Of a DNA stretch of 64,000 nt, positions 36,196-43,741 are shown in pieces (the first letter of the stretch is position 1; every line of letters starts with the position of its first letter). This DNA is from Alphaproteobacteria bacterium (lineage in GTDB: Bacteria; Pseudomonadota; Alphaproteobacteria; UBA7985): NCBI GenBank assembly GCA_965661545.1, contig CBFIEF010000004.1, forward strand, positions 1,831 through 65,830. Direction: 5' to 3'. The translations under genes and the position numbers were made by a program. The notes under the pieces are model-generated. The model ran no database searches. It was not told the DNA's origin and saw only the letters and a program-made list of their open reading frames with translations.

Positions 36196-37209
36196 TTACA
36201 TCCAGTCCATGATAACCGGCACCAGCGGCACGTCCGCTGGTGGCATTTCCAAGTCACGCAGCTCAAACTTTGAGACCCACTTGAGCGCTTGTCCTTCTCG
36301 ACCCGTTGGCTCGCCTGTCCACTTGCGCGCCGCATAGACGGGCATCATCAGGTGAAACTTGGGATAAGGGAAACTGGCAAAGGTCAGCGGGGCAAGGCAC
36401 CCGATCCCGACGTCGATCCCGAGTTCTTCCTGCAATTCGCGGATCAGCGCGGCCTCTGGCCCTTCATTGGGTTCCATTTTACCACCAGGAAACTCCCACA
36501 AGCCTTCCAGCGCCTTACCCTTGGGCCGCTGAGCGACCAGCACCTGATCGTGCTCATTGAACAAAGCAGCGGCGACAACCCAAACCACAGGCACCCGCCG
36601 ATCCAGCTGCGGCTGCATCGTACAACCGCCGGAAAACACAAACTCATCGAATTCAGTCCGCGCCATGGTGGTGTCCAGATGCTGCTGCTTGCCGGCGTGG
36701 AGCGTCTCAATCGTGCCTTCGGACCAGCCATCGAACCCGCACTTTTCCAGCACCCGCTTCGACGCTGGATTGCCAATCAGAACGCCGGACTCAATGACCG
36801 GAAGCTCCATGTACCAATAGCCAAAGGTAAGCGCATGAAACGCCGCCTCCGTCGCGACGCCGCGACCCCAAGCATGCGGAGCAAACCAGTAGCCGATGTG
36901 CCATCCGCCGCGCTGCGAATCCAAACCCACGAACCCCAACGGCTCCCCGCTGACACGATCCTTGACCACCCAGCGCACAGCTTCACGTGCCTTGAAGGTG
37001 GCTTGTGACAGATCCAAGAACGTCTGCGCGCCGTCTTCGGGATAGGGATGCGGAACCCGCGCCAGCCACTGTGCAACCTTCCTCTCCGCCGCATAGCGCT
37101 GGACGAAATCGAGGTGTGCGGGGCCAAAGAGCTCCAGCGTCAGATTGGGCGTACTGAATTCAGCCAACTGAGCGGTGTCCGGGAACCACTTGGGCGCAAC
37201 GTCACTCAC
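36196..37209 (-). CDS. bifunctional GNAT N-acetyltransferase / NUDIX (MutT-like 8-oxo-dGTP diphosphatase) fusion protein
   Basis: N-terminal half is a RimJ/L-like GNAT; C-terminal half carries the Nudix box 'GGKMEPNEGPEAALIRELQEELGI'; GTG start overlaps the argJ stop. Confidence 0.75.
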   Translation of the reverse strand: MSDVAPKWFPDTAQLAEFSTPNLTLELFGPAHLDFVQRYAAERKVAQWLARVPHPYPEDGAQTFLDLSQATFKAREAVRWVVKDRVSGEPLGFVGLDSQRGGWHIGYWFAPHAWGRGVATEAAFHALTFGYWYMELPVIESGVLIGNPASKRVLEKCGFDGWSEGTIETLHAGKQQHLDTTMARTEFDEFVFSGGCTMQPQLDRRVPVVWVVAAALFNEHDQVLVAQRPKGKALEGLWEFPGGKMEPNEGPEAALIRELQEELGIDVGIGCLAPLTFASFPYPKFHLMMPVYAARKWTGEPTGREGQALKWVSKFELRDLEMPPADVPLVPVIMDWM

Positions 37210-38408
37210 GAGCGGTAATCTCCGTTGATGGTGATATAGCCGTGGGTCAGGTCACAGGTCCGCACGCGCGCCTGCCCGGTGTTCAACCCCAATTCAACGC
37301 GAATGGTGATCTCGTCGCCCTGCATATAGGCGGATACGGTTTCCTCATCATAGGCCATGTCGCGCAAGCCGTTTTCGGCGACGCGGTGCGGGCCGAACCA
37401 GATGCTTAGCCGATCGCGATCAGCCGGTTCACCTGCCTTGCCTACGGCCATGACCACCCGGCCCCAGTTCGCGTCTTGCCCCGCTACAGCGGTTTTGACC
37501 AGAGGCGAATTTGCGATGGATAGCCCGATGATTTTAGCTGACGCGTCGCTCTGTGCGCCTTCAACTTCGATGGTGATAAGCTTGGATGCGCCCTCGCCAT
37601 CTCGGGCCAGCATTTCGGCCAGTTGGTCGCAAACATCAAAGATTGCTGCGCCGACGGCTTGCAGGTTGTCAGGGGCCGCACCGCCGCCCAGGGCGAAGGC
37701 GAGAACAGTATCGCTGGTAGACGTATCGCTATCAACGGTGATGCTGTTGAAGGTCTTTTCCGCCACTTCCGACAATGTTCGTTGCAGCCAGTCTGCGGGG
37801 AGCGGCGCGTCGATTATGATGTAGCCCAGCATGGTCGCCATATCTGGCGCAATCATGCCCGAGCCTTTGCAGATCCCTGTCACCGTCACGCCGCCTGCTT
37901 TCGCAACAGCCCACTTGGGGAACGTGTCAGTGGTCATGATGGCCCTTGCCGCGCCCTCAAGGCTTTGTTCCGATGCCTGCTCGGCCAATAGGCCCGCAGC
38001 CGCTGAGATTGCCTCAGCCTCCAGCGGTTCGCCGATCACGCCGGTCGAAGACAGCAACACGTCCTTCGCTGCGCAGCCCACCGCCGCCGCTACGGCCTGT
38101 GCCGTTGTCTCACAGGCCGCGACGCCAATAGCGCCAGTAAAGGCGTTTGCGTTGCCTGCGTTGACCAACAGTGCCCGCGCCGTGCCGTCCTGCACAGCCT
38201 TGCGCGACCAATCAACAGGGGCACCGGGGCATTTAGACTTGGTGAAAACCCCCGCGACTGTGGTCCCCTCAGGGAAAACCGCCAGCGTGACGTCATCGCG
38301 CCCTTTATAGCGCGTTCCGGAGTTCCCTGTGGCCAGCTTCAACCCGGATACAGGCTCAAGCGTCGCCAACGTTTGTGGCTTTAACGGGGAGACAGGCAGT
38401 TGATCCAT
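37206..38408 (-). CDS. argJ: bifunctional glutamate N-acetyltransferase / amino-acid N-acetyltransferase ArgJ
   Basis: 400 aa; autoprocessing site context …ATMLGYI…; conserved ArgJ N-terminus. Confidence 0.9.
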   Translation of the reverse strand: MDQLPVSPLKPQTLATLEPVSGLKLATGNSGTRYKGRDDVTLAVFPEGTTVAGVFTKSKCPGAPVDWSRKAVQDGTARALLVNAGNANAFTGAIGVAACETTAQAVAAAVGCAAKDVLLSSTGVIGEPLEAEAISAAAGLLAEQASEQSLEGAARAIMTTDTFPKWAVAKAGGVTVTGICKGSGMIAPDMATMLGYIIIDAPLPADWLQRTLSEVAEKTFNSITVDSDTSTSDTVLAFALGGGAAPDNLQAVGAAIFDVCDQLAEMLARDGEGASKLITIEVEGAQSDASAKIIGLSIANSPLVKTAVAGQDANWGRVVMAVGKAGEPADRDRLSIWFGPHRVAENGLRDMAYDEETVSAYMQGDEITIRVELGLNTGQARVRTCDLTHGYITINGDYRS

Positions 38409-38509
38409 TCTTCACATTCCATTGCTCTTGCGCGCACCGGTCTTGAGCTTCAGTGCATCCTGTGGTTTGTCCCAGCAAATCACGGAACGCGGATCAGGAG
38501 AACTGCGAG

Positions 38510-39070
38510 ATGCAGACACGACCCTTGTTGAACCGTCTAGGCGGTGTGTTGGTTTTGATGGTGGCGGGACTCGCCTGGTATCTCAACCAACAAACCGCAC
38601 AGGCTGTTGATCTTGAAAACTACCAGCAGCGCGAAGCTTCGTCGAAGGTTTGTGGCTATGACCTTGGTCTCGATGGGCCAGAAGTGGAAACGTTGGTGGC
38701 GTTCGGAGAAGAACAGGGGGTCCGCTTTCCCTATGCTTTCGCACAAGTCACCGCGTATCTGTGGCTGATAGGTGAGCTGCCAGACTGCTACATGACCAAG
38801 AGCGTCGCGCGCGGACAAGGTTGGAAAAGCGCCGGAACAACCGTCGATGATATCAACATCGATGGGGCCATCGGCGGGGATACCTTTGGCAACCGCGAAG
38901 GCCGCCTGCCCCAGCGCCCCCGCAACCGCTACGCCGAAGCGGATCTGGATTACGTGCGCGGCAATCGCGGCGCAGCCAGACTGGTTTACGACCGTGAATT
39001 GACAGATCGCGGGTTCATTTGGGTCACTGTTGACCACTACGACAGCTTTCAGCGCATTCCGGAGTTATGA
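38510..39070 (+). CDS. secreted barnase-like guanyl-specific ribonuclease (RNase N1/T1/Ba family)
   Basis: Signal/TM MQTRPLLNRLGGVLVLMVAGLAWYL; C-terminal domain aligns with Bacillus barnase: YMTKSVARGQGW (YITKSEAQALGW), GGDTFGNREGRLP (GGDIFSNREGKLP), YAEADLDYVRGNRGAARLVY (WREADINYTSGFRNSDRILY), VTVDHYDSFQRI (KTTDHYQTFTKI); catalytic Lys/Glu/Arg/His all present; RBS ggagaa 8 nt upstream. Confidence 0.8.
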   Translation: MQTRPLLNRLGGVLVLMVAGLAWYLNQQTAQAVDLENYQQREASSKVCGYDLGLDGPEVETLVAFGEEQGVRFPYAFAQVTAYLWLIGELPDCYMTKSVARGQGWKSAGTTVDDINIDGAIGGDTFGNREGRLPQRPRNRYAEADLDYVRGNRGAARLVYDRELTDRGFIWVTVDHYDSFQRIPEL

Positions 39071-39348
39071 GCATGAAACACCCCATCAAGCGTGCCGTGA
39101 TCAATGACTTGGGCGCGAGCGATAGTGTGACGCAGATCAAGCGCCTGTACGAACAGCTAGGGATCGCCGCAGGCTTGAACCTCGATGCCCTCGCTGACGT
39201 GCTGACAGATCCAAACTGGCTACAAGGCCCAACTGTGATTTGCTGGCTGGCTTGCCCCAAAGCTCGCTCTGGCTGGCACAAGACGCTATACGACACCCTC
39301 GAAGAAGCAGCAGGTGTGCGCGACGATTTGACTTTTGTTGTGCGCTAG
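39067..39348 (+). CDS. barstar-like ribonuclease inhibitor (immunity protein)
   Basis: …KRAVINDLGASDSVTQIKRLYEQLGIAAGLNLDALADVLTD… parallels barstar [43 protein letters not shown] (barnase-contacting Asp conserved); ATGA overlap with the barnase stop. Confidence 0.7.
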   Translation: MSMKHPIKRAVINDLGASDSVTQIKRLYEQLGIAAGLNLDALADVLTDPNWLQGPTVICWLACPKARSGWHKTLYDTLEEAAGVRDDLTFVVR

Positions 39349-39379
39349 ACCTGACTTTTCACCCCTTCAACCCACCTGA

Positions 39380-39589
39380 GTGGCTATGAAAACATTCTTC
39401 CTTATTTTGACAGTCGTTTTCCTGATCGGAACACTCGTCACCATGCTGCTCGGGGCCTTTTCAATGGGCCGGGGCGGGGACTTTAACCAGAAGTACGGAA
39501 ACCTGCTCATGCGGGCACGGACAGTCTGCCAGGGTGGCACGATCGCCTGCTTGCTGCTGATGTTTCTAACCAGTCGATCCGGAGGCTGA
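39380..39589 (+). CDS. twin-transmembrane-helix small protein (HIG1-domain-like)
   Basis: 69 aa, two TM helices separated by a short polar loop; stop overlaps/abuts the pduO-type gene start. Confidence 0.5.
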   Translation: MAMKTFFLILTVVFLIGTLVTMLLGAFSMGRGGDFNQKYGNLLMRARTVCQGGTIACLLLMFLTSRSGG

Positions 39590-39591
39590 AT

Positions 39592-40164
39592 ATGGTCGAA
39601 TTGACACGGATCTACACCAAGGGTGGTGATCGAGGGAAAACCAGCCTGTCCACAGGCACGCGTGTGGCGAAGTACGACTTGCGTGTCGATGCTTACGGCA
39701 CAGTTGACGAAGCCAACGCTGTTCTTGGTCTGGTCCGGATGCACCTCGAAGACTTTCCAGACTTGGATAAGATCGTGGCACGGGTTCAAAATGACATGTT
39801 CGATCTGGGCGCCGACCTCGCGACACCGCTGGATGCAGAATTGTCCTACGAGCCTCTACGGATAACCGAAGGCCAAGTGGACAAGCTTGAGCGTGACATT
39901 GACCTTTATAATGACCGGCTCGAGCCCTTGAAGTCTTTCATTCTGCCCGGCGGCAGCGCAGCGGCAACACAGTTCCATCTGGCGCGAACAGTGGTGCGAC
40001 GTGCAGAGCGTCTGACGGTGGAGCTGGGCGATAAAGTCGATATCAACCCAGAATCAATCCGCTACCTCAACCGTCTGTCTGACCTGATGTTCGTGTTGGC
40101 GCGGATTTGTAATGATGACGGCAAGGCTGACGTGCTTTGGGTTCCCGGGGCTTCCCGCGAATAA
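39592..40164 (+). CDS. ATP:cob(I)alamin adenosyltransferase, PduO-type
   Basis: MVELTRIYTKGGDRGKTSL…DAYGTVDEAN… is the PduO-type signature N-terminus. Confidence 0.85.
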   Translation: MVELTRIYTKGGDRGKTSLSTGTRVAKYDLRVDAYGTVDEANAVLGLVRMHLEDFPDLDKIVARVQNDMFDLGADLATPLDAELSYEPLRITEGQVDKLERDIDLYNDRLEPLKSFILPGGSAAATQFHLARTVVRRAERLTVELGDKVDINPESIRYLNRLSDLMFVLARICNDDGKADVLWVPGASRE

Positions 40165-40181: not shown

Positions 40182-41384
40182 CTACGCAGCGATGGGCGCT
40201 TTGGCTTCCCGGTACGACAGTCGTTGCATTTCCATCAGTCGAGATTGGGTCCGTAGGAAGGGTTGCATGTCGTGCTCTTCCAAGTTCACCAATTCCGCAA
40301 TCGGCGCAGCAGCACGGGCATAGATGCTCGTGCCCGCTTCGTAGAAAACATCGATCATAATCCGGAACCGCTCACCGCTATCTCGCGTGTTGTAGCGGAT
40401 TTGCGGAATGTCATCGACGAAAACGCGGTCAAAGGACTGTGCAATCAGCAAGTAGTCATCTCGTCCCAGCGGCTGCTCACACAGGTCGGCATAGCGAAAC
40501 CGAGCGGTGCGTCCCGCCGCTTCAGGCACATTGACCGAACGTCCCAAGACCGATAGCTGCGCGGGCTCCCCGCGCACAACCTTGGCTTCACGCTCAAAAA
40601 TTGTTTGGAACGCCTGCGCCGTCTTTGCACCCAGCGGAGATACCCACGCTTCCGTCTCAGAACCGTGGCGGAGGCGATAGTCCTGTGAGTGATCCAGATT
40701 GACGACATCAAATTCGCGCTCAATCAGCTCAATCGTCGGCAGAAACAACTCGCGCTTTAAGCCGCCAGTGTACAGATCGCCCGGTGCTTCGTTCGAGGTG
40801 GTCACGACCGTAACGCCCTCTTCCATCATAACAGACAGCACGCGCCCCAGCAGGGTCGCATCGGCGATGTTGTTGACGAAGAATTCATCAAAGCACAGGA
40901 CTTTGGCCTTTCGCGCCTGTGCGCGGGCAAAGCGGGCAGCGGTGTCACCGCGCGTGTCGCCCTTGGACCGGCGCGCATGGATATCGGCATGCAGGTCACT
41001 CATGAACTCATGGAAATGACGGCGCTGCGCCAATTGTGGACCCATCGCGTCGTAAAACAGGTCCATAGCCGTCGTCTTACCCCGTCCAACAGGGCCAAAG
41101 AGGTACAAGCTACGGCGAACTTCTTTTTCCGCCGCGCCCGCGTTTGGTTTCCCGCCTCGACCAAAGAGGCGACCAATCCATCCCATGACGCCACTGGCTT
41201 CTCCCTGCTTCGCGGAAGTAGCGCGTGCGCGTTTGCGCCGGAGCGCGGATGGAGACAAAATTAGTTCCTGATAGAGCCCATCCAACGCCTCCACCGCCCG
41301 CCGTTGGGCAGGTTGTGGACGCAACTCGCCAGAAGAAAGCGCGCGTTCGTAAAGTTCGAGGGGTGAGGCGATCGTGGTGGACAT
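40182..41384 (-). CDS. zapE: cell division protein ZapE (AFG1-family ATPase)
   Basis: Walker A 'GPVGRGKT'; AFG1/ZapE length and motifs. Confidence 0.85.
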   Translation of the reverse strand: MSTTIASPLELYERALSSGELRPQPAQRRAVEALDGLYQELILSPSALRRKRARATSAKQGEASGVMGWIGRLFGRGGKPNAGAAEKEVRRSLYLFGPVGRGKTTAMDLFYDAMGPQLAQRRHFHEFMSDLHADIHARRSKGDTRGDTAARFARAQARKAKVLCFDEFFVNNIADATLLGRVLSVMMEEGVTVVTTSNEAPGDLYTGGLKRELFLPTIELIEREFDVVNLDHSQDYRLRHGSETEAWVSPLGAKTAQAFQTIFEREAKVVRGEPAQLSVLGRSVNVPEAAGRTARFRYADLCEQPLGRDDYLLIAQSFDRVFVDDIPQIRYNTRDSGERFRIMIDVFYEAGTSIYARAAAPIAELVNLEEHDMQPFLRTQSRLMEMQRLSYREAKAPIAA

Positions 41385-41446: not shown

Positions 41447-43741
41447 TTAGAACGGCAGAGGAATCTCCAGGCCATTGATGTTGAGCGCCTCACCCGCAGG
41501 AATATCGATCACAAACTCCAGCGCACCGTCATCGGTCGGCGTGCCAAACATCGACGCGCCAAACAAGCCCTCAAGCACTTGCTCGATTGTTTGCGCAGTG
41601 CCAGGGAAGGCATCAACTTCGCCACTTTCAATCGCCATCATCAACTCGATAAGGTGCGCCTGCGCTTCCGCGACGCCCAACATCGTCATCGTGATCGAGC
41701 CAACCGAGTAATTCGGCGGCAACATTGGATTGATGGCCACGGTCCCGGACGCTGTCGCCTCAACCTTGCCGCCACTGATGTACGAGGGCTGCACAACCAA
41801 CGAAGGCGGGGACGCCAAAATCGGAGAAATCAGCGCCGCGCCGGCCAGCAACAGCGATGACGGATCAAAATCCGGGTCTAGCATTGTGTCCACCGGCGGC
41901 AGCGGAACATTGCCCGCGATGGCCAAAATCATCGCCATGGGAATATCCGCAAGTTCGATCGTAAGACCTGCGTCCGTCGGTAAGAACCCCGGCTTGTCGC
42001 TACCGAGCACCAACTCGACCAGCACAGGATCAGCCACCTCGTCTTCGATCTCAGCCTGAAGGCCTGCGAATGATACGTGTTGCCGGATTTTAGCCTGATC
42101 GGTCAGCATATCGTGTGTTGTAAAGCTGATATCGGCAGCAGCTAAAGCCCCAGAAATCTCGCCCGTGTCAGCCGCAGTATTGGCGTAGAAAGACGCGTCT
42201 TTCAAACCCACCCTCAAGCTGGGTAAGTAGCTGCTGAGTGCAAACCGAAGCGCGTCAGCCAGCGTGAGATCATCGTTCTCCAAGCCCAGCACAATCTCCG
42301 TGATGCTGGTCAAGCTGTCGCGGATACTGTAGCCGGCGGAAAGCTCACCAAACGAGAAACCAATTTCCTCTGGCAATTCAACGTTAAACCCCAAGAGCCG
42401 CGCTGTCAGATCCTGCACGTCGCTGTCTGGTTCAAAGTTAAAGCTGGTCCCCAGCTCAGCGCCTGACATCGAAACTCTCAGCCGTTCGTCATCGCTCTCT
42501 GGCAGTTCAAGGCTCGCACCATCGAGCCTCAGCGCAAAATCACTGGCCGTGAGAACATCCGCACTCCATGCCAGTATCTTCCCACCAACACTCAGGTACA
42601 TGTCGATCAACACATCTTCGGGCTGGTAGAAATCTTCAGCCTCCATCATCCGCACTTGCGCAGACAGATCGGCGAGTGCGTCCGCTAGGGGGTCTAAGCC
42701 ATAGTCCGGTGTATAGGTGGTGCTGCCAGACAGCGATCCACCTTGCATATCCAAGAGACTGAATTCTCCGCCCGCACCAGACCAGTGGTCATAAACAATC
42801 AGCTGCAACTGCCCCAGCATGCCGGTCGTACTGGCTATTTTCGCTGCGTGGTCATAGGCCGTTTCAATCGAAAGGCCATCGAATTCCAGTCGTCCGTCAA
42901 AGTCCAGCAAGTCCACATCGTTCAAGGATAACTTGCCCATCTCAATGCTAGAATTGAGATCCTGCAATTCAGTGTCAAACAGGGGAATAAACCGGTCAAT
43001 CAGGTTTGCCGCGGCGTCCGCTGGCGAGGTGATTCCGGCTTCAAACATCGCGAACTGCTTGAAACCTTCATTGATTTCACGCTGCAAAAACCAATCTGGC
43101 GTGTTCACTGTTTCAAAGGAAAACCCAAAGCTCTCAAGGGATCCAATCTTTGCCCCATCAATCGCGGCAGAGAGGTCCATAATCGTAAAGTCAGCTCCAC
43201 TAAGCGGGTTCTGTTTCCGCTCATCAAAGAGGAAGTTGAGCGCGCCAACCTTTACATAATTTGCTTCTTCTGCGCCTGACTCTGCGAACAGCAAATCCTG
43301 AATGGTGAGTTCAAACCGTTCGGTCGCCTGCGCCTCCGGGTTGATGGTCATGCTGAGCTGAAACTCGGCAACTTCGAATGTTGTCCCTAATTCTGGGAGA
43401 AGTTCGATCAGCAGCTGTGCGAGATCCGTTGTCAGATTCAAGGAACCGTTTTCTGCTTCCGTGGCCTCAAAGGACAGATCACCCAGCGGCAACCCGTCGA
43501 TATTGGCGTCGGCCATCACCACGTCGAAAGCAGCCCCATCTCCGTCACCGTCTAACACCGTGAGCGTTTCATATTCGATGGGCAGCCCAAACAACAGAGG
43601 AACGGGCAGATCCTCCATGGACGTTAAAACCGTCGCGACTTGCGCCGCGGTCATGGTTTGAGACTGGGCTTGCGTGGCAAACGACGTCCCAAAAGCGGCG
43701 ATACACATCAACGCTTTAAGGTGTTGGAATGGCTTTTTCAT
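41447..43741 (-). CDS. large secreted acidic hypothetical protein (paralog A; possibly DUF2125-like)
   Basis: 764 aa; signal peptide MKKPFQHLKALMCIAAFGTSFATQAQS; Leu/Asp/Glu/Gly-rich; C-terminal '…LEFVIDIPAGEALNINGLEIPLPF' resembles the C-terminus of the downstream paralog. Confidence 0.6.
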   Translation of the reverse strand: MKKPFQHLKALMCIAAFGTSFATQAQSQTMTAAQVATVLTSMEDLPVPLLFGLPIEYETLTVLDGDGDGAAFDVVMADANIDGLPLGDLSFEATEAENGSLNLTTDLAQLLIELLPELGTTFEVAEFQLSMTINPEAQATERFELTIQDLLFAESGAEEANYVKVGALNFLFDERKQNPLSGADFTIMDLSAAIDGAKIGSLESFGFSFETVNTPDWFLQREINEGFKQFAMFEAGITSPADAAANLIDRFIPLFDTELQDLNSSIEMGKLSLNDVDLLDFDGRLEFDGLSIETAYDHAAKIASTTGMLGQLQLIVYDHWSGAGGEFSLLDMQGGSLSGSTTYTPDYGLDPLADALADLSAQVRMMEAEDFYQPEDVLIDMYLSVGGKILAWSADVLTASDFALRLDGASLELPESDDERLRVSMSGAELGTSFNFEPDSDVQDLTARLLGFNVELPEEIGFSFGELSAGYSIRDSLTSITEIVLGLENDDLTLADALRFALSSYLPSLRVGLKDASFYANTAADTGEISGALAAADISFTTHDMLTDQAKIRQHVSFAGLQAEIEDEVADPVLVELVLGSDKPGFLPTDAGLTIELADIPMAMILAIAGNVPLPPVDTMLDPDFDPSSLLLAGAALISPILASPPSLVVQPSYISGGKVEATASGTVAINPMLPPNYSVGSITMTMLGVAEAQAHLIELMMAIESGEVDAFPGTAQTIEQVLEGLFGASMFGTPTDDGALEFVIDIPAGEALNINGLEIPLPF

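Follow-up and report, generated by a model that had tools for sequence, protein, structure and literature searches.

We describe here a two-gene locus in a 64-kb stretch of DNA from an uncultured marine alphaproteobacterium (hereafter the window; all numbering refers to the whole of it), at which a gene of the barnase family of ribonucleases (RNases) is followed on the same strand by an overlapping gene of the barstar family of RNase inhibitors. The features of the locus are collected in Table 1. Both open reading frames (ORFs) lie on the forward strand just where an earlier reading of the sequence alone, the original prediction, had located them, and the ATGA through which that reading had joined the second ORF to the first is likewise present.

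Gene boundaries

The RNase start is marked by the Shine-Dalgarno sequence AGGAGAAC, which together with the RNase ATG is unchanged in 7/7 aligned related loci, including those of a Val subclade discussed below; moreover, the called length of the RNase homologues equals that of the window RNase. We therefore dropped the longer reading from an upstream GTG (38453). For the inhibitor we also considered the second ATG (39073) as a start, since it has a GGAG 8 nt upstream and many gene callers give a 91-aa product. We consider this start the less probable of the two: several homologues have the first Met alone (in P0058, P0060, and P0061 it is the only Met available), and the 4-nt overlap recurs at L001, L006, and L089, the distant relatives L006 and L089 among them; the overlapping inhibitor start is therefore taken to be the conserved one. 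The overlap suggests that the RNase and its inhibitor are translationally coupled via ATGA.

Table 1. Features of the RNase-inhibitor locus and its neighbors (window numbering)
Feature	Position	Strand	Details and basis
Shine-Dalgarno AGGAGAAC of RNase gene	38496..38503	+	6 nt 5' of ATG; read from sequence
Barnase-family RNase gene	38510..39070	+	186 aa + stop; ORF list, Pfam, phmmer, AlphaFold2/Foldseek
Predicted Sec signal peptide	38510..38605	+	Residues 1-32; n-region R4, R9; hydrophobic L10-L25; AQA before V33
Lineage-specific N-terminal extension of mature protein	38606..38728	+	Residues 33-73; helices 35-43, 57-69; net charge -6
RNase Cys48	38651-38653	+	Within extension
Barnase-like catalytic core	38729..39067	+	Residues 74-186
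RNase Cys93	38786-38788	+	Barnase Asn23 position; alignment
RNase K97	38798-38800	+	Barnase Lys27; alignment
RNase D124		+	Barnase Asp54; alignment
RNase F126		+	Barnase Phe56 (guanine loop); alignment
RNase N128/R129/E130	38891-38899	+	Barnase Asn58/Arg59/Glu60; alignment
RNase E143	38936-38938	+	Barnase Glu73, general base, within RYAEADLDY; alignment
RNase R153	38966-38968	+	Barnase Arg83; alignment
RNase R157	38978-38980	+	Barnase Arg87; alignment
RNase H176	39035-39037	+	Barnase His102, general acid; alignment
RNase Y177		+	Barnase Tyr103; alignment
ATGA overlap	39067..39070	+	RNase stop TGA / inhibitor start ATG; sequence
Barstar-family inhibitor gene	39067..39348	+	93 aa + stop, no signal peptide; Pfam, AlphaFold2/Foldseek, profile alignment
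Inhibitor D40	39184-39186	+	Barstar Asp35; profile alignment
Inhibitor D44	39196-39198	+	Barstar Asp39; profile alignment
Inhibitor E80	39304-39306	+	Barstar Glu76; profile alignment
GNAT-NUDIX fusion gene	36196-37209	-	Pfam
ArgJ gene	37206-38408	-	Pfam
HIG_1_N small membrane protein gene	39380-39589	+	Pfam
PduO-type cobalamin adenosyltransferase gene	39592-40164	+	Pfam
AFG1-type ATPase gene	40182-41384	-	Pfam

A barnase-family RNase

The RNase scores 53.2 bits against the Pfam Ribonuclease profile PF00545 (gathering cut-off 24), its residues 90-183 aligning with positions 13-97 of the 98-position profile; a search of NCBIfam with the same protein matched no model. A phmmer search of all PDB sequences retrieves binase and barnase at E values of 6e-19 to 1e-16, with residues 77-183 aligned onto barnase 7-109, the closest solved sequence being binase 1BUJ (E 5.6e-19). 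Residues were mapped with a position table, for which the RNase was aligned with barnase and 50 homologous sequences. In barnase, Glu73 and His102 serve catalysis and Lys27, Arg59, Arg83, and Arg87 serve binding (PMC9321962, PMC8837141). All ten of the catalytic and recognition residues that we checked are conserved in the window RNase (10/10), and H176 is invariant across the 43-sequence alignment. The guanine loop differs from that of barnase at one residue only, Ser57, which is Gly in the window RNase, as in nearly all homologues. The AlphaFold2 (AF2) model, built on 43 sequences, has a mean predicted local distance difference test (pLDDT) score of 89, and Foldseek superposes it on barnase and binase chains with template modeling (TM) scores of 0.82-0.88, normalized to the target, and root-mean-square deviations of 1.7-2.1 Å over ∼110 columns; the window protein is thus predicted to adopt the barnase alpha+beta fold.

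A barstar-family inhibitor

The downstream protein scores 34.3 bits against the Pfam Barstar profile PF01337 (cut-off 23.4). Its AF2 model (pLDDT 82) has the order beta-alpha-alpha-beta-alpha-beta, and the 27 best PDB matches of that model in Foldseek are all barstars (TM 0.71-0.78, probability 1.00), with a sharp fall beyond them to the next match at E 3e-2. We mapped its residues by alignment to a profile of about 80 natural barstars. The barstar acidic triad Asp35/Asp39/Glu76, which faces barnase Lys27/Arg59/Arg83/Arg87 (PMC8837141), is retained, and its two Asp residues, which form a DxxxD motif in helix 2, are invariant in 12 homologues. Barstar Glu80 is replaced by Val84 in the same profile alignment. 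The N-terminus of the inhibitor has no hydrophobic segment.

These results bear out most of what the original prediction had recognized from the sequence. Its likeness to barnase stands (the Ribonuclease profile passed, E∼1e-18, and a superposable model), as does the likeness to barstar (the Barstar profile passed, a model that matches barstars, the motif LDALAD present, and the equivalents of Asp35 and Asp39 kept as D40 and D44), and the HMMER profile comparison that it had proposed puts both proteins above their cut-offs. The motifs YMTKS, GNREGRLP, RGNRGAARLVY, and DHYDSF are all found in the RNase, and the Lys, the substrate-binding Arg pair, and the catalytic His assigned there correspond to K97, R153/R157, and H176. 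The assignment of the general base needs correcting: the Glu of GNREGRLP, E130, is the equivalent of barnase Glu60 in the guanine loop, and the general base is E143.

Predicted export signal, N-terminal extension, and charge

The RNase N-terminus, with a hydropathy peak of 2.6 over residues 10-22, an AXA motif at -3 to -1, and an AF2 helix at 7-26, looks like a cleavable Sec signal, with a cleavage site predicted by the (-3,-1) rule. A Sec signal in a Gram-negative cell means delivery to the periplasm. The RNase would accordingly be found in the periplasm and possibly beyond it; the term "extracellular" used in the original prediction is unproven.

The extension that follows the signal is not predicted to be a floppy propeptide: residues 31-70 form an AF2 block with pLDDT 89-97. 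No solved structure among the Foldseek matches covers the extension (residues 33-73). One Cys of the protein lies in this extension and another in the core, and the two tend to be present or absent together. Among the first homologues, 20 have both, 22 have neither, and one has a single Cys; among 146 evaluable representative clusters the corresponding numbers are 23, 120, and 3, a co-occurrence signal that comes largely from one clade. The pattern suggests that a Cys48-Cys93 disulfide probably forms after export and pins the extension to the core. An additional C-terminal YCG(P/A)SVCD, which supplies a second cysteine pair not present in the window protein, occurs in P0018, P0019, and L091:2541-3197. 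Many of the more distant homologues (P0029, P0031, P0032, P0035-P0044) have a Cys right after the N-terminal hydrophobic segment (e.g., ...LLIAGCS, ...LLSCT), which suggests barnase-family RNases anchored as lipoproteins, and in P0039, P0042, and P0044 a PF09479 domain stands ahead of the RNase domain.

The mature RNase (38606-39067) is acidic, with an isoelectric point (pI) of 4.66 (5.3 for the core), and the inhibitor (39067-39345) is near neutral, with a pI of 6.0.

General base and barstar among relatives

To place the window pair among its relatives, we scored 88 dereplicated metagenomic RNase loci, gathered with retrieval patterns that left out the Glu73 position. A barstar gene lies directly downstream of the RNase gene at 74/81 assessable loci that retain Glu, and every barstar-linked RNase has kept the general base (74/74), which lends comparative support to a toxin/inhibitor logic.

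In one group, the Val subclade (P0010-P0013), Glu73 is replaced by Val and the remaining catalytic residues are all kept. Its four loci (L088:2590-3374, L094:3236-3995, L095:3876-4635, and L099:454-1207, equivalent to window 38510-39380) are on independent contigs and show the order NUDIX-ArgJ/RNase-HIG-PduO with no barstar gene, the RNase and HIG genes being only 140-170 bp apart. The difference between 0/4 Val loci and 74/81 Glu loci with a downstream barstar gives a Fisher p of 1.6e-4, a value that exaggerates the strength of the evidence because the four Val loci form one cluster. Neither tblastn nor a six-frame profile search found a barstar remnant in the Val-subclade gap, and nucleotide alignment of the gap to the barstar coding sequence was no better than with shuffles (z about 0); a match between gap and barstar produced by MAFFT was rejected, as it spans only the spacer 5' of the HIG gene. 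On grounds of parsimony only, with barstar present in the outgroups L091, L119, and L125, the Val subclade would have lost its barstar gene, as opposed to the gene having been gained elsewhere. The ratio of nonsynonymous to synonymous substitution rates (dN/dS) for the Val-subclade RNase is 0.09-0.13, and the sole pair unsaturated at synonymous sites (dS 0.41) gives 0.13, versus 0.10 for ArgJ; the gene is therefore not decaying.

A second lineage (P0115), whose RNase is 37% identical to that of the window, has Ile in place of Glu73. Its loci (L178:2501-3269 and L179:1116-1884) show the order RNase-HIG-PduO with a 13-nt gap and have no barstar gene on the contig. A 100-aa ORF that precedes the Ile-variant RNase gene was considered as a displaced inhibitor and rejected, as it shows no similarity to barstar. 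The nearest relative of P0115, at L104, has kept the Glu and has no adjacent barstar gene. Loss of the general base is thus seen only where no barstar gene is adjacent, at 5/5 assessable loci in the two lineages (Val and Ile). This natural pattern mirrors laboratory findings on barnase: once its Glu73 is caged, blocked, or replaced, the enzyme loses activity and toxicity and can be expressed with no barstar present (PMC8299518, PMC6439198).

The Val subclade may represent a natural pseudo-enzyme or an enzyme of altered mechanism. We offer only tentatively, as a rather unlikely idea, the broader proposal that in the Val and Ile lineages a barnase fold is becoming a non-nuclease, an exported protein that purifying selection maintains at the same conserved place ahead of HIG_1_N and PduO. 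If it were true, the RNase-HIG-PduO linkage and the two-helix extension with its disulfide tether would be signs of an uncharacterized periplasmic function, non-catalytic or differently catalyzed, and the window enzyme with its inhibitor would represent the ancestral state in a natural series in which such a pair dissolves into a pseudo-enzyme.

Replacement of catalytic residues is not confined to these lineages: among the 146 representative clusters, Glu73 is lost in 7 and His102 in 3 (Glu73 to Ala or Ser in P0079, P0081, P0085, and P0018; His102 replaced in P0066, P0097, and P0196). The Glu-to-Ser (L176) and Glu-to-Ala (L177) loci fall outside the barstar counts above, their contigs ending 55 and 77 nt past the gene.

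Interpretation of the pair and alternatives to it

We consider it highly probable that the pair consists of an exported, guanyl-preferring, metal-independent endoribonuclease of the barnase type and its cognate barstar-type inhibitor. The core of the original prediction, an exported RNase with a coupled, self-protecting inhibitor, thereby gains the support of profiles, residues, predicted folds, and the gene order found at 74/81 loci. Bearing a Sec signal at its N-terminus, the newly made RNase would cross the inner membrane to the periplasm, possibly going further. In the periplasm, the Cys48-Cys93 disulfide would pin the two-helix extension onto the barnase core. E143 and H176 would serve as the general base and the general acid, respectively, with K97, R153, and R157 holding the phosphate and the loop of F126, N128, R129, and E130 reading guanine. 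The inhibitor, having no signal, would remain in the cytoplasm, made together with the enzyme by way of the ATGA overlap; its helix 2 (D40 and D44, with E80) would plug the active site formed by K97, R129, R153, R157, and H176. Any RNase that folded prematurely in the cytoplasm would in this manner be neutralized, and the RNA of the cell itself protected. The ecological role could be the scavenging of RNA for nucleotides or phosphate, or the harming of competitors.

Several observations weigh against this interpretation. By phmmer, the inhibitor matches Bacillus barstar in PDB only weakly (E about 0.08), which is why we checked the inhibitor fold by model. Moreover, a 2-residue deletion removes barstar Tyr29/Tyr30, and Ala43 stands in place of Trp38, Tyr29 and Trp38 being aromatic hot-spot residues. 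These two are features of the Bacillus prototype and not of the PF01337 family, and family membership stands; with them absent, the energetics of binding probably differ from those of the prototype. Cleavage of the signal peptide is predicted by rule, and the segment might instead be an uncleaved membrane anchor. Judging from the charges, electrostatic steering over long range probably plays a smaller part than in the prototype, with local charge complementarity retained at the interface. The association between loss of Glu and loss of barstar comes from two lineages only, and 7 Glu-retaining loci, in five clusters, have no adjacent barstar gene: L104, L114, L128, L129, L137, L141, and L143 encode the full catalytic set with no barstar detectable within 2.5 kb. 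The inhibitor at these loci may be unlinked, unrelated to barstar, or not needed. Bacillus species with active binase-type enzymes likewise have no barstar (PMC8837141), and the absence of an inhibitor is therefore no proof of a dead enzyme. At two of these loci (L128 and L137), a membrane protein of roughly 485 aa is encoded directly 3' of the RNase gene.

The pair might alternatively be an interbacterial weapon, in which competitors receive the RNase and sister cells are shielded by the barstar-like protein, as in polymorphic toxin/immunity systems. Barnase domains and Imm-Barstar do occur in such systems (PMC3482391), the order of toxin then immunity gene fits them, and the N-terminal extension has no assigned function. 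We nonetheless regard a weapon, whether contact-dependent or polymorphic, as very unlikely. The large multidomain toxin, variable C-terminal cassette, and polymorphic immunity that characterize polymorphic toxin systems are not found here: the 186-aa protein has only its signal peptide and the 41-residue extension ahead of the core, with the RNase as sole domain and with no delivery or repeat domain, and in place of polymorphism there is vertical inheritance with the neighboring genes at a dN/dS of about 0.1. No secretion-system genes occur in the neighborhood according to the ORF list and Pfam, and the inhibitor, having no signal peptide, could not neutralize an incoming periplasmic toxin. 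The survey that describes these systems itself keeps "simple barnase-barstar pairs" apart from full polymorphic ones (PMC3482391).

Another alternative is that the RNase is no longer a nuclease, having been repurposed to bind RNA or nucleotides in the periplasm or while anchored in the membrane, and that the barstar-like protein serves it as partner or chaperone instead of inhibiting it. Such a role would suit the acidic charge, unlike that of the known secreted basic RNases, and the sister lineages in which the general base is gone and purifying selection still acts on the RNase gene, a persistence that implies a selectable value of the fold beyond catalysis. It is hard to reconcile with the catalytic and substrate-binding residues of the window RNase, all intact and invariant within the clade, with the Asp/Asp/Glu triad by which the inhibitor would plug an active site, or with the retention of barstar exactly where the general base is retained. 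We judge this reading highly improbable for the window copy, but one to be taken seriously for the Val and Ile relatives.

In a cytoplasmic type II toxin-antitoxin addiction module, the toxin is cytoplasmic and the antitoxin, usually encoded first, is labile and bears a DNA-binding domain. That the window pair is such a module is scarcely credible: it shares the tight coupling of an RNase gene with an inhibitor gene, but its toxin comes first, has a predicted export signal, and carries the kind of conserved cysteine pair that exported proteins typically have, its inhibitor is modeled as a plain barstar fold with no DNA-binding domain, its composition is unlike that of a mobile element, its synteny is stable, and it has neither close plasmid relatives nor a PADLOC match.

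Relation to known systems

An exported enzyme with a cytoplasmic inhibitor, as we predict here, is the arrangement of the Bacillus amyloliquefaciens barnase-barstar system (1BRS, 1A2P, and 1X1W), which comprises the same two families and the same folds (those of the window proteins being predicted). Core identity to barnase is 37-41%; the catalytic set (Lys27, Glu73, Arg83, Arg87, and His102) and the guanine loop (Asn58, Arg59, and Glu60) are shared with barnase, and the acidic triad (Asp35, Asp39, and Glu76) with barstar. In contrast to that system, the window host is a Gram-negative alphaproteobacterium and the two genes overlap by ATGA. Barnase has no cysteines, whereas the window enzyme has a 41-residue two-helix extension, structured according to the model, and a likely Cys48-Cys93 disulfide; it also has a 4-5-residue insertion after the barnase Ser92 position. 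The reference pI values of 8.9 for barnase and 4.7 for barstar compare with 4.7 and 6.0 for the window enzyme and inhibitor, and Tyr29 and Trp38 of barstar are not conserved in the latter. An acidic barnase with a near-neutral barstar that has neither residue constitutes a naturally occurring variation on the electrostatically steered interface of the textbooks.

Simple barnase-barstar pairs in the order toxin then immunity are widespread (Zhang et al. 2012, PMC3482391), and Geobacter metallireducens Gmet_2616/2617 is annotated as such a pair (PMC2700814). Like these simple pairs (PMC3482391), the window locus has a stand-alone barnase-domain protein gene and then a barstar gene, without delivery domains or polymorphism. 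The 2012 survey lists Tox-Barnase in the beta-, gamma-, delta-, and epsilon-proteobacteria and not in the alphaproteobacteria (PMC3482391), whereas the window pair comes from an uncultured alphaproteobacterial lineage and is a stable neighbor of HIG_1_N and PduO genes. The Bacillus binase-type RNases have the same fold and are secreted and guanyl-preferring, but their hosts have no barstar gene (PMC8837141), as compared to the conserved cognate inhibitor here. Enterobacterial barstar homologues (Salmonella 5F4C; 2CX6) match the inhibitor model with TM scores of 0.75-0.77 at only about 19-20% identity; barstar-fold proteins are therefore established in Gram-negative bacteria.

The pair is thus of an already known kind, and standard annotation recognizes it: the expectation that automated annotation would easily miss such pairs is contradicted by the NCBI names of the close homologues P0008 and P0057, "ribonuclease domain-containing protein" and "barstar family protein". 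What it adds is a well-supported barnase-barstar pair from a lineage barely represented in earlier surveys. The comparison may be of modest use to protein scientists, for its variant interface, for an extended subfamily with a probable disulfide, and for sister lineages in which inhibitor and general base are lost jointly although the RNase gene is maintained. Close homologues of both proteins are almost all metagenomic. An exhaustive search with the RNase returned 1,300 clusters (50% identity) at E≤1e-3, 592 at E≤1e-10, and 7 at E≤1e-30; its own branch is thinly sampled. A plasmid search returned distant relatives only, mostly from Bacillus and covering the catalytic domain alone. The PADLOC defense models matched neither protein, and we set aside a role in anti-phage defense.

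Neighborhood and inheritance

Downstream of the pair, 31 nt separate the HIG_1_N gene from the inhibitor gene and 2 nt separate it from the PduO gene, and neither gap has a terminator-like site; this spacing suggests that HIG_1_N and PduO are probably co-transcribed with the pair. They are context, outside the mechanism of the RNase and its inhibitor. Promoter and terminator scans of the locus gave nothing beyond shuffled expectation, and an Rfam search of the operon for a cobalamin riboswitch or other structured RNA gave no match of note.

The closest of the reference genomes, an unclassified alphaproteobacterial metagenome-assembled genome, encodes an ArgJ 82% identical to that of the window; the other genomes returned, mostly Hyphomicrobiales, reach ≤59%. 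In relatives with identical gene order, RNase identity (74-82%) tracks ArgJ identity (74-82%). Compared to these relatives, dN/dS is about 0.10 for the RNase and 0.07-0.13 for ArgJ, with the inhibitor evolving faster at 0.16-0.30, most pairs being saturated at synonymous sites. GC content across the pair is 0.54-0.60, versus 0.55-0.64 in the flanks. The order RNase-(barstar)-HIG-PduO recurs where the RNase is only 41-44% identical. The original prediction had taken the pair to be inserted among core genes; as a recent event, and specifically as a recent horizontal insertion, we reject this in view of the flank-like GC, the syntenic relatives, and the HIG-PduO linkage in those distant lineages. 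Across a wider set of loci (L104, L113, L118, L119, L125, L127, L140, L150, and L178), the same order RNase-(barstar)-HIG_1_N-PduO accompanies RNases only 37-44% identical.

We found no functional rationale for the linkage of the RNase gene to HIG_1_N and PduO, which may be inherited synteny only. At 79 more distant alphaproteobacterial argJ loci, RNase, barstar, HIG, and PduO genes are all absent beside argJ, and the arrangement at argJ is hence lineage-specific, yet old. A relative with 52% identity has an RNase-barstar pair in an unrelated neighborhood; the RNase and barstar genes therefore travel together.

Two other genes near the pair deserve mention. The gene on the far side of argJ, described as mutT-like in the original prediction, encodes a fusion of GNAT (residues 23-159) and NUDIX (residues 211-329) domains and overlaps the argJ stop. 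A tblastn search with it at the 79 other alphaproteobacterial argJ loci gave matches that mostly span ∼350-500 nt, as much as the NUDIX half alone would occupy, and the GNAT fusion therefore appears largely lineage-specific. Beyond the AFG1-type ATPase gene, a 764-aa ORF on the reverse strand (41447-43741) has a signal-peptide-like N-terminus and no Pfam match, and lies in a stretch of GC 0.50-0.55; its identity to the counterparts in relatives is only 37-38%, against 72-92% for the neighboring genes, and it is hence fast-evolving.

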